Positions 32,267 to 33,665 of a stretch of DNA of 64,000 nucleotides are shown piece after piece. A program made the translations under genes and the position numbers. Under the pieces are notes generated by a model. It did not search any database. It worked only from the letters and a program-made list of their open reading frames with translations, and was not told the origin of the DNA. The stretch lies in the NCBI RefSeq assembly GCF_056746865.1, contig NZ_CM163382.1; one strand, given 5' to 3'. Each line of letters opens with the position of its first letter. The stretch's first letter is position 1.

Positions 32267-32416
32267 ACGCTCTAACTAACAAAACCATAATAGCCAAGGA
32301 CGGCATACTGATATTGAGCCAACTATCAAAATTCCATATCACATTACGGGCCTGTGGCTTACATTCGCTTACAGTGATGATAATTTATAACCACGCAATT
32401 CTTAGGTGAGATTATC

Positions 32417-33115
32417 ATGATTAAAAATCTTCTTTTAATATTATCCCTGTCATTATTGGCTGGATGCGTACAAAAACCGTTAGTAACGGTCAATGCTTTA
32501 TCTTCCGGGCAATCTGTCGGTAAGAAGTTCTTGATCATCCCCGCAAGCCAAGAACTTTGGAACACCAAACAGATTGAATACACTCAAATAGCTACGGTAG
32601 TAGCCGCCAGTTTATCAAGCCAAGGATATACACAAGTTAAAGATGAAAAATTGGCTGACCAGGTAATTCTCTTGAACTTTTTGAGAAGCGGGGCCATTTC
32701 AAATACTCGTAATGTAACCATCCCAATATACGGGCAAACTGGTGTGAGCTCAGCAACAACGTACGGAAACTCGAACACCACGTTCAATAGTTATGGTGGT
32801 GGCTACGGTACAGCTAATACCACTGGAACGGCAACAACAGTTTATACGCCTACTTATGGAATTACTGGCGCGTATAACACAACTGTGACGGACACGTTCT
32901 ACGGCGCAGGGGTGATACTCCAGTCGTTTGATGCCAAGGCTTATCTCAATAATAGGCAGATTAATATGTTATGGAAAGTTGGTAGCTCAGTCGTCTCGCA
33001 ACAGTCTGATGGAATTGCTGATTACAAGGGGTTGGCGAGAATAGCCGCTAGCTATGCCGGGAAAAATACAGAAGGTGATATAACTTTTAATGTTGACCCT
33101 AAAGCACCAAATTAA
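32417..33115 (+). CDS. lipoprotein, Thr/Gly/Tyr-rich (232 aa)
   Basis: Signal peptide with lipobox LLAGC; low-GC gene by eye; hairpin gcccggtacgccgggc just downstream. Confidence 0.7.
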   Translation: MIKNLLLILSLSLLAGCVQKPLVTVNALSSGQSVGKKFLIIPASQELWNTKQIEYTQIATVVAASLSSQGYTQVKDEKLADQVILLNFLRSGAISNTRNVTIPIYGQTGVSSATTYGNSNTTFNSYGGGYGTANTTGTATTVYTPTYGITGAYNTTVTDTFYGAGVILQSFDAKAYLNNRQINMLWKVGSSVVSQQSDGIADYKGLARIAASYAGKNTEGDITFNVDPKAPN

Positions 33116-33665
33116 CTAATAAGCCCGGTACGCCGGGCATTTATGCCCCTATTATTCATGAATCGCTTTTTCTAGAAGGTATGCGACAAACGTTAAGTGA
33201 CATTGCCTACACATTCGGGGCGGGATTTCAAATCCGCTCCCAGTTGATGGGGGGCGTTACAGTACGCGCATATCCGCTTTATGTGAAACAGGAAGATTTT
33301 TCTGATATCACTGCCACAGCAAAACACCAATTTCGTGACCAGTACGCGCGCGAGGGGCATCAGTTGCAAAAAGTTTTGCAACTGCGTCCGACCAGTACAC
33401 ACACGATGGCGGTGGATACCATAAAACTGTTCTCTACATGAGACAGAGTGGTGGTGATGTGTTGATTATCGGCGTATATGCGCACAGGTCGCGCTATGAC
33501 GATGTTTTATGCGGGTACACCAATCACATGTATCTGATGTGATAAATCGCGTTACATGACCTCTCTGTTGTGCTGGTGGTTATCACGACGTTCTGAATCT
33601 GGCTTTTGTCTGATATTTTGCGACAAGTACGCGCGCGTAGCATCGACAGCATACACATTGGATAT

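Follow-up and report, generated by a model that had tools for sequence, protein, structure and literature searches.

The genes of the exclusion lipoproteins Cor, Llp and Rtp45 adjoin phage receptor-binding or entry genes. These phage-encoded lipoproteins (Cor of φ80, N15 and T1, Llp of T5, Rtp45 of Rtp) exclude phage at the outer membrane; Llp and Rtp45 act from its periplasmic face, are small (Rtp45 ~6 kDa) and bind a defined receptor (FhuA, LptD) (PMC12685063). In phage P22 the inner-membrane protein SieA blocks DNA entry. Its gene is kept between gene 16 and gene 9 in P22 and relatives, and mutants that escape SieA map to gp16 and gp20 (PMC10461980). TraT of IncF plasmids (PF05818; PDB-entries 9e2v, 9fs5 and 9fsm) is an outer-membrane lipoprotein for surface exclusion and complement resistance, encoded by a mobile element against incoming DNA, and consists of an LptE-like core plus a β-hairpin (bioRxiv 10.1101/2025.05.27.656304). 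Here we describe a gene for a predicted lipoprotein of 232 residues (positions 32417..33115, + strand) in a stretch of 64,000 nucleotides from an Escherichia coli chromosome (contig NZ_CM163382.1), referred to as the window. Our preferred reading, which we hold tentatively and at somewhat less than an even chance, is that this lipoprotein is an envelope-level factor that excludes incoming phage.

The open reading frame (ORF) begins with ATG and ends with TAA. The encoded N-terminus, MIKNLLLILSLSLLAGC, contains a lysine at position 3 (K3), a hydrophobic core and the lipobox L14-A15-G16-C17 (LLAGC), whose residues 14–17 (L-A-G-C) conform to the signal peptidase II pattern [LVI][ASTVI][GAS]C. The signal peptide with the lipobox LAGC is encoded at positions 32417..32467 (+ strand), the last codon of which (32465-32467) specifies Cys17, the predicted lipidated residue. 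This cysteine is present in 144 out of 149 aligned family members; the other five have a gap at that column. A first-pass annotation of the window had already reported a 232-residue lipoprotein with the lipobox LLAGC, and we agree: the gene is real and its product, judged by sequence, is a predicted signal-peptidase-II lipoprotein. In E. coli the residue following the cysteine governs the sorting of lipoproteins (the +2 rule). This residue is a valine in the window protein, and an aspartate is found at +2 in only two of the 144 homologues. Valine at this position predicts Lol-dependent sorting of the lipoprotein to the outer membrane.

We favor exclusion because the gene occupies a known exclusion slot (that of sieA), because it is repeatedly linked to envelope-breaching genes and because its product has a core fold in common with TraT. 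The slot is seen in a complete P22-like prophage of Serratia surfactantfaciens (L007), where a 62%-identical homologue is located between gene 16 and Arc/tailspike, i.e. in the gene 16–gene 9 interval; neither gene 9 nor the remainder of such a phage is present in the window. The lipoprotein had been said at first pass to stand in a position common for superinfection exclusion. This holds for the Serratia prophage with its sieA-type slot, while the exclusion function itself is suggested by position and fold. SieA and the window protein differ in that the former resides in the inner membrane, whereas the latter is a lipoprotein with a predicted location in the outer membrane. Homology between both proteins is very unlikely; what sets them apart is the lipobox together with the lack of transmembrane segments, and not a sequence comparison.

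The linkage to envelope-breaching genes was found in several further phage types. Podovirus prophages of S. nevei and S. marcescens contain homologues with 38-39% identity, and in these two Serratia types the homologue begins 0-12 bp past the last T7_gp14-type / internal-virion-protein gene. Several IMG/VR contigs have the same arrangement, with the gene past the T7_gp14-type/internal-virion-protein cassette and 5' of the tailspike and lysis genes. In a lambdoid prophage of Rouxiella (L010) a 46%-identical homologue is inserted between the tail-tip genes gpK and gpI. A second lipoprotein gene (phrog_890, 132 aa; positions 8708-9106 of L010) follows directly after this homologue, likewise between K and I. 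The proteins encoded immediately upstream of the lipoprotein in the window, in the S. nevei prophage (L009) and in L110 are mutually unrelated. Co-evolution with one particular ejection protein is ruled out by these unrelated upstream proteins in three phage types.

The occurrence of the gene is sporadic. Among 80 IMG/VR loci with a gene for a related gp16, only one contains it; in the other loci the slot is filled by different small envelope proteins, including two other lipoprotein families (phrog_6067 and phrog_6823), and by Mnt/Arc/Ant. Together with its insertion past three unrelated ejection cassettes and into the lambdoid K-I tail cluster, this shows that the gene is transferable and only sporadically occupies a slot in which envelope-directed accessory genes collect. 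The slot past gene 16 was highly variable in 75 P22-like viral contigs (L030-L107, about 0-4 kb 3' of the gp16 match). It was often occupied by other, unrelated lipoproteins or envelope proteins without an assigned function: phrog_6067 (a lipoprotein of ~160 aa) in 14 loci, phrog_6823 (a PEGA-like lipoprotein of ~150 aa) in 14 loci and phrog_5962 (a coiled-coil protein with a single membrane pass) in 30 loci.

Further homologues come from other genera and elements (Paramixta 40%, Vibrio 28%, other elements lower). Some of them reside in islands, namely one of the integrase/AlpA/primase kind, one in Vibrio with a neighboring reverse transcriptase and a CP4-like one in which the gene follows CbtA/CbeA; others are found on viral contigs, next to HipA-like/DUF3037 or HerA genes. 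Some of the carrier islands have no virion genes at all. In Vibrio fluvialis (L011, positions 6536-8708) the 28%-identical homologue is located 185 bp 3' of a reverse-transcriptase gene (RVT_1). The island around it also encodes KilA-N, RNase H, an integrase and a resolvase and may serve in defence; alternatively, there may be a link between the lipoprotein and the reverse transcriptase.

The tight spacing in the Serratia podoviruses, where the homologue is probably part of the late transcript, bears on a different role. The lipoprotein could act in the lytic cycle as a factor for the element's own transfer, co-expressed with the ejection proteins, e.g. by stopping progeny from ejecting into debris or by aiding release, and would then not defend the lysogen. 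Llp is thought to play such a role (PMC12685063). In E. coli the lipoprotein gene and the gp16 allele are each found in 75 out of 5426 complete genomes with >99% identity, and all lipoprotein matches listed also overlap the adjacent lytic-transglycosylase (gp16-like) gene. On the other hand, homologues are also encoded in islands without virion genes, and the lipoprotein is no o-spanin. This latter assignment (Rz1-like) was ruled out by the length of 232 aa, the missing partner i-spanin, the absence of lysis genes from the island and the separate lysis cassettes in Serratia. Such a role overlaps with exclusion and is not truly exclusive of it; as a reading of its own we regard it as improbable.

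The neighboring genes also bring to mind a possible target. As a sub-mechanism of exclusion, the lipoprotein could inhibit a virion-borne cell-wall hydrolase: conserved Gly/Thr/Ser/Tyr loops would plug the cleft of the lytic transglycosylase, and the peptidoglycan would stay shut. Hydrolase domains are indeed encoded next to or near the gene in several carriers, namely as an SLT domain in gp16 of the window and of Serratia, as a match to a 'tail injection transglycosylase' in L009 and as an NlpC/P60 domain in gpK, the upstream gene in the lambdoid prophage. The lipoprotein lysozyme inhibitors MliC and PliC insert conserved loops into the active-site cleft of their target. Among the matches of the window protein, however, we observed no similarity in sequence or fold to Ivy, MliC, PliC or PliG, and the adjacency may be incidental, as hydrolase domains are common in ejection proteins. 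We therefore give this sub-mechanism little credence.

The third argument for exclusion comes from the predicted structure. The AlphaFold2 (AF2) model has a predicted local distance difference test score (pLDDT) of 79, with values >90 for the core, an α/β domain. A long β-hairpin formed by residues 82-108 and 146-172 projects from this core; its tip (residues 110-145) has a pLDDT <50. Structural neighbors (the two values reported for each match in parentheses) were a Bacteroidales lipoprotein, PDB-entry 4l8n (12.6; 9.1e-5), PelC (10.8; 4e-3), TraT (9.4; 0.017-0.026), the crystal structure of the DUF4136 protein BT2437, PDB-entry 4f54 (8.9; 2.6e-4), CsgG (8.6; 0.21 or weaker) and LptE (7.6; 6.6e-3). 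A Foldseek search of viral structures (BFVD) resulted in a sole match, an LptE-like protein with E 3.6e-4. PelC, LptE and CsgG are ring- or plug-forming outer-membrane lipoproteins of LptE-like fold. They have no sequence relationship to the window protein and serve export machines, none of which is encoded near the lipoprotein gene. The fold is not one that has previously been tied to phage exclusion.

TraT is of similar size and, like the window protein, combines an LptE-like core domain with a protruding β-hairpin; the sequences of the two are also weakly similar in their N-terminal β-α-β unit (70% probability in hhalign over 76 columns, signal peptide included). The Foldseek probability, however, amounts to only 0.44-0.66, and the two Gly/Ala-rich transmembrane helices that build up the decameric α-barrel of TraT correspond here to a polar Thr/Gly/Tyr insertion without a hydrophobic stretch. 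The Pfam model of TraT (PF05818) scored 12.9 bits, below its cut-off of 31. With this score, and with an hhalign alignment restricted to the N-terminal 76 columns, membership in the TraT family was rejected, and TraT was retained as a distant fold relative.

The central insertion (GQTGVSS…PTYGITG), and not the core domain, is the most conserved part of the family. It comprises residues 96-160 (positions 32702..32896, + strand) and contains two near-invariant motifs, P-x-[WFY]-G-Q-T-G-V-S-S at residues 103-112 and T-x-Y-x-P-T-Y-G-I-T-G at residues 141-151. Many of its columns, including both motifs, are 90-100% conserved across 149 diverse members, and the invariant columns of the alignment A1 lie inside it as well. 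The insertion consists of 31% Thr, 15% Gly, 11% Asn and 11% Tyr, compared to 12.5% Thr and 9.7% Gly in the whole mature protein. The Thr/Gly/Tyr-rich mature region noted at first pass is thus real, but it is concentrated in this segment. A transmembrane β-hairpin or a CsgG-like oligomeric β-barrel was not supported, since hydropathy across the family revealed no alternation of hydrophobic residues in the insertion. Oligomer formation likewise found no support in an AF2 prediction of a linked trimer (three copies with Gly-Ser linkers and a 16-sequence alignment), which is a weak test: the insertion remained at a pLDDT of 30-35, with a predicted template modeling score (pTM) of 0.40. As judged from the alignment, the strong conservation of the insertion suggests that it contacts a target which is itself conserved, either a component of the host envelope or a catalytic cleft, rather than a fast-evolving phage protein.

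A conserved target that is not of phage origin would also suit a lysogenic-conversion factor of the envelope, which like TraT or λ Bor benefits the host and hence the element, e.g. by resistance to serum/complement or phagocytosis or by envelope robustness. The LptE-like core is common with TraT, which also confers complement resistance (bioRxiv 10.1101/2025.05.27.656304). The E. coli carriers include blood isolates, avian pathogenic (APEC) and Shiga toxin-producing (STEC) isolates as well as commensals; among them are clinical and animal strains and strains from laboratory mice such as NC101 and MP1. However, homologues also occur in environmental bacteria and metagenomes without a vertebrate host, the protein is not a member of the TraT family, and conversion leaves the repeated placement past ejection-protein or tail-tip genes in unrelated phages unexplained. 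We consider conversion unlikely as the main role.

Sequence searches place the protein close to a large family. No match to the lipoprotein was obtained in PHROGs, NCBIfam or PADLOC (PADLOC-DB at E up to 0.1). The Pfam model of DUF4136 (PF13590) scored 14.2 bits for the window protein, which is below the gathering threshold of 32.8. A word-indexed search yielded 37 homologues, from Kluyvera, Pluralibacter, Serratia, Rouxiella and Salmonella, followed by distant PF13590-bearing proteins, and 14 out of 28 aligned homologues passed the DUF4136 model (best E 1.3e-15). Homology to DUF4136 is thus given by these intermediates and by the common fold, whereas the window protein itself differs by its sub-threshold score and by the ~50-65-residue GQTG…YGITG insertion. 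We conclude that the protein is a divergent DUF4136 member of LptE-like fold and stands outside the Cor, Llp and TraT families. An exhaustive profile search resulted in 3824 clusters at 50% identity, 654 of them full length at E <= 1e-30; all names retrieved for family members were 'hypothetical', 'lipoprotein' or 'DUF4136'. When sequences of the PDB were searched with the family profile including the insertion, only a chance 18-residue match to a glucanase was obtained. We found no paper on the GQTG/YGITG subfamily or on the function of DUF4136. As the family is without a known function, the DUF4136 label adds no mechanism.

The size of this family, half of whose distant homologues examined pass the Pfam model, raises the question whether the lipoprotein is mere cargo: a generic DUF4136-type envelope lipoprotein with a housekeeping-like role, e.g. 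in outer-membrane/cell-wall homeostasis. DUF4136 proteins have been found in chromosomal operons of undescribed role (PMC5192318), and one of our homologues adjoins uvrA and ssb. Nearly every readable context, however, is a prophage, a satellite or an integrative island. Moreover, the gene is absent from 5351 of the 5426 complete E. coli genomes and is therefore not a housekeeping gene in this species. Taken together, we judge generic cargo to be quite unlikely.

A relationship to Cor or Llp, with FhuA, LamB or OmpC as the target, had been put forward at first pass. Such a receptor blocker would be a small periplasmic lipoprotein that binds one of these proteins and stops adsorption, and the position of the gene beside entry-related phage genes is in fact reminiscent of cor, llp and rtp45. 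The search for relatives of this kind found none: the protein has no homology to any PHROG family, and PHROGs would include Cor and Llp; NCBIfam and PADLOC gave no match either. Cor, Llp and Rtp45 would be expected at ~60-80 aa, whereas the window protein, with 232 aa and a mature mass of 23 kDa, is about three times their size and folds differently. The carrier phages are mostly tailspike-bearing podoviruses. Podoviruses of this type attach to polysaccharide, and no use of FhuA or LamB is known for them. Nothing in our data points to FhuA, LamB or OmpC, and we regard receptor blocking as very improbable.

Based on position, fold and conservation we propose the following mechanism for the preferred reading, envelope exclusion. 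The lipoprotein would be anchored in the outer membrane, with an LptE-like body and a protruding β-hairpin that exposes the conserved Thr/Gly/Tyr-rich tip. It would interfere with a step past O-antigen binding of incoming podoviruses. The blocked step could either be the penetration of the outer membrane/cell wall or the assembly of the ejection-protein conduit. As a result the carrier cell would be protected, and no progeny virions would be lost to debris or to cells already infected. Exclusion, its mechanism, the expression of the gene and the outer-membrane location of the product are all points that we infer.

Several observations weigh against exclusion. Searches of 50,697 sequenced phage genomes with the lipoprotein (megablast and tblastn) gave no match, nor did PADLOC, PHROGs or NCBIfam. 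The LptE-like fold is generic among outer-membrane lipoproteins of many functions, and the family is large, as the cluster count given above indicates. Our sampling of genomic contexts was biased towards close homologues and viral collections, and ordinary chromosomal genes may account for many members. Proteins engaged in an arms race do not usually keep a near-invariant motif. In addition, a satellite that bars P22-like phages could bar its own helper. Finally, the gene directly adjoins the late operon in some phages, which leaves no space for a separate promoter, so that expression from the lysogen is an assumption.

In the window, the lipoprotein gene is separated from the gp16-like gene by an intergenic gap of 150 bp (positions 32267..32416, + strand, 38.7% GC). 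The Shine-Dalgarno sequence AGGTGAG (32404-32410, + strand) is located inside this gap, 6 nt 5' of the ATG, and the last ~80 bp of the gap are conserved in the Enterobacteriaceae ortholog. A promoter search yielded three consensus matches compared to 3.4 expected in shuffled sequence, i.e. chance level, and the conserved block upstream of the lipoprotein gene contains no convincing -35/-10 pair. A GC-rich, terminator-like hairpin (GCCCGGtacgCCGGGC, positions 33123..33138, + strand) with a 6-bp stem, a 4-nt loop and a degenerate U-tract begins 8 nt past the stop codon, where a hairpin had indeed been noticed before. The orthologous hairpin in other Enterobacteriaceae (L004) is followed by U8 (positions 8843-8850 of L004), and a canonical terminator is likewise found at the Serratia nevei homologue (L009). 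The E. coli copy of the hairpin has lost its U-tract (positions 33139-33160, ATTTATGCCCC), whereas the Enterobacteriaceae ortholog keeps it; from the sequences, read-through into the downstream ORFs may differ between the two. An ORF of 86 aa (33181-33441) is located right past the hairpin. Of two RefSeq genomes, one (L001) lists it as a hypothetical protein and the other (L002) leaves it unannotated; it had no match in Pfam, PHROG, NCBIfam or PADLOC.

These features allowed us to assess the description of the gene as a low-GC moron apart from the upstream operon. The separation is correct for the window, where the gene has its own ribosome binding site, the 150-bp gap and the terminator hairpin, but it does not extend to the two Serratia podovirus types with a spacing of 0-12 bp from the late gene. 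The windowed GC and codon-usage check proposed in the first-pass annotation was carried out. The ORF has a GC content of 42.5%, compared to 47.9% for the island, 49.5% for the gp16 gene and 50-53% for the core flanks, which places it at the 6th percentile when 699-bp windows of the island are ranked and at the 11th for the whole window. The GC content at third codon positions (GC3) is 0.403 and thus equal to that of the upstream genes (0.41-0.45; gp16 0.410, gp7 0.416). The deficit is found in codon position 1 (0.425 vs about 0.6). Because it lies in first positions while GC3 is the same as in the neighbors, the low GC content reflects the amino-acid composition of a Thr/Asn/Ile/Tyr-rich protein and not a separate origin. 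A foreign origin based on low GC was accordingly ruled out, and the reported AT-rich patch is a mild one without a distinct origin. The term moron is therefore justified in part: the anatomy and the sporadic insertion in unrelated phages speak for it, whereas the base composition, which is not distinct from that of the neighbors (GC3 0.403 vs 0.410), does not. With regard to a promoter and terminator of its own, the hairpin (canonical in orthologous loci), the promoter matches at chance level and the contact with a late gene in the two Serratia prophage types fit either view.

The gene is part of an island of ~21 kb inserted between yicC and dinD of the E. coli chromosome (positions 14334..34969). 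The island extends from an integrase gene (14334-15677) to PerC (34682-34969), with the lipoprotein gene on its 3' side, as had been stated; dinD at 35630 is the right-hand core flank. Just 3' of the integrase gene there is an IS3-family element (15858-17131) with an ORF (16226-17131) that encodes rve and HTH_21 domains. The island further encodes Ash, a helix-turn-helix (HTH) protein, an AntA/B-like protein and a Zn-ribbon/Toprim/DUF5906 primase-helicase, and the lipoprotein gene is followed by small ORFs and then by PerC. Directly upstream of the lipoprotein gene is a P22-type ejection-protein cassette (27098..32266, + strand). It consists of gp14/DUF2824 (27098-27559), gp7 (27553-28230), gp20 (28230-29549) and gp16 (29540-32266), all on the + strand; gp16 carries an SLT domain at its N-terminus.

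These four genes are the only virion genes of the island; no capsid, head, portal, terminase, tail or lysis genes were observed in it. The element is therefore no usual prophage but a satellite-like island, and the lipoprotein cannot be called prophage-encoded in the window. With its integrase, Ash, primase-helicase and PerC the island looks like a satellite of the P4 or PICI (phage-inducible chromosomal island) type. We found no paper on satellites with their own ejection-protein cassettes. The element is found at at least two attachment sites, yicC-dinD and thrW, and other Enterobacteriaceae and IMG/VR contain an element that closely resembles it and has genes for SSB and ProQ. Outside the island, the window contains a tRNA-Sec gene (selC, 55407-55501), followed at 56139-64000 by an ORF of 394 aa and a region of low GC content (34-42% from about 59 kb), features that probably mark another genomic island, located at selC.

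A broader claim, which we regard as doubtful, is that the GQTG/YGITG lipoproteins form a new, widespread class of envelope exclusion proteins with the LptE-like core of TraT, set beside the envelope-breaching genes of temperate podoviruses, siphoviruses and satellites. They would stop phage DNA after adsorption, via a conserved host envelope component or the cell-wall hydrolase of the ejectosome, and the carrier would represent an undescribed kind of satellite that itself supplies P22-type ejection proteins. Should the exclusion reading be wrong, the protein is one more accessory lipoprotein without an assigned role, and the finding is an ordinary one. If it is true, a large uncharacterized family would join the short list of envelope-level phage-exclusion proteins, and phage exclusion would be tied to the surface exclusion of plasmids (TraT) by a common fold. 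The lipoprotein would also provide a handle on a poorly understood step, the crossing of the outer membrane and cell wall by podovirus ejection proteins. The gene, present in about 1.4% of the complete genomes of E. coli, could then also affect phage susceptibility in therapy or typing.

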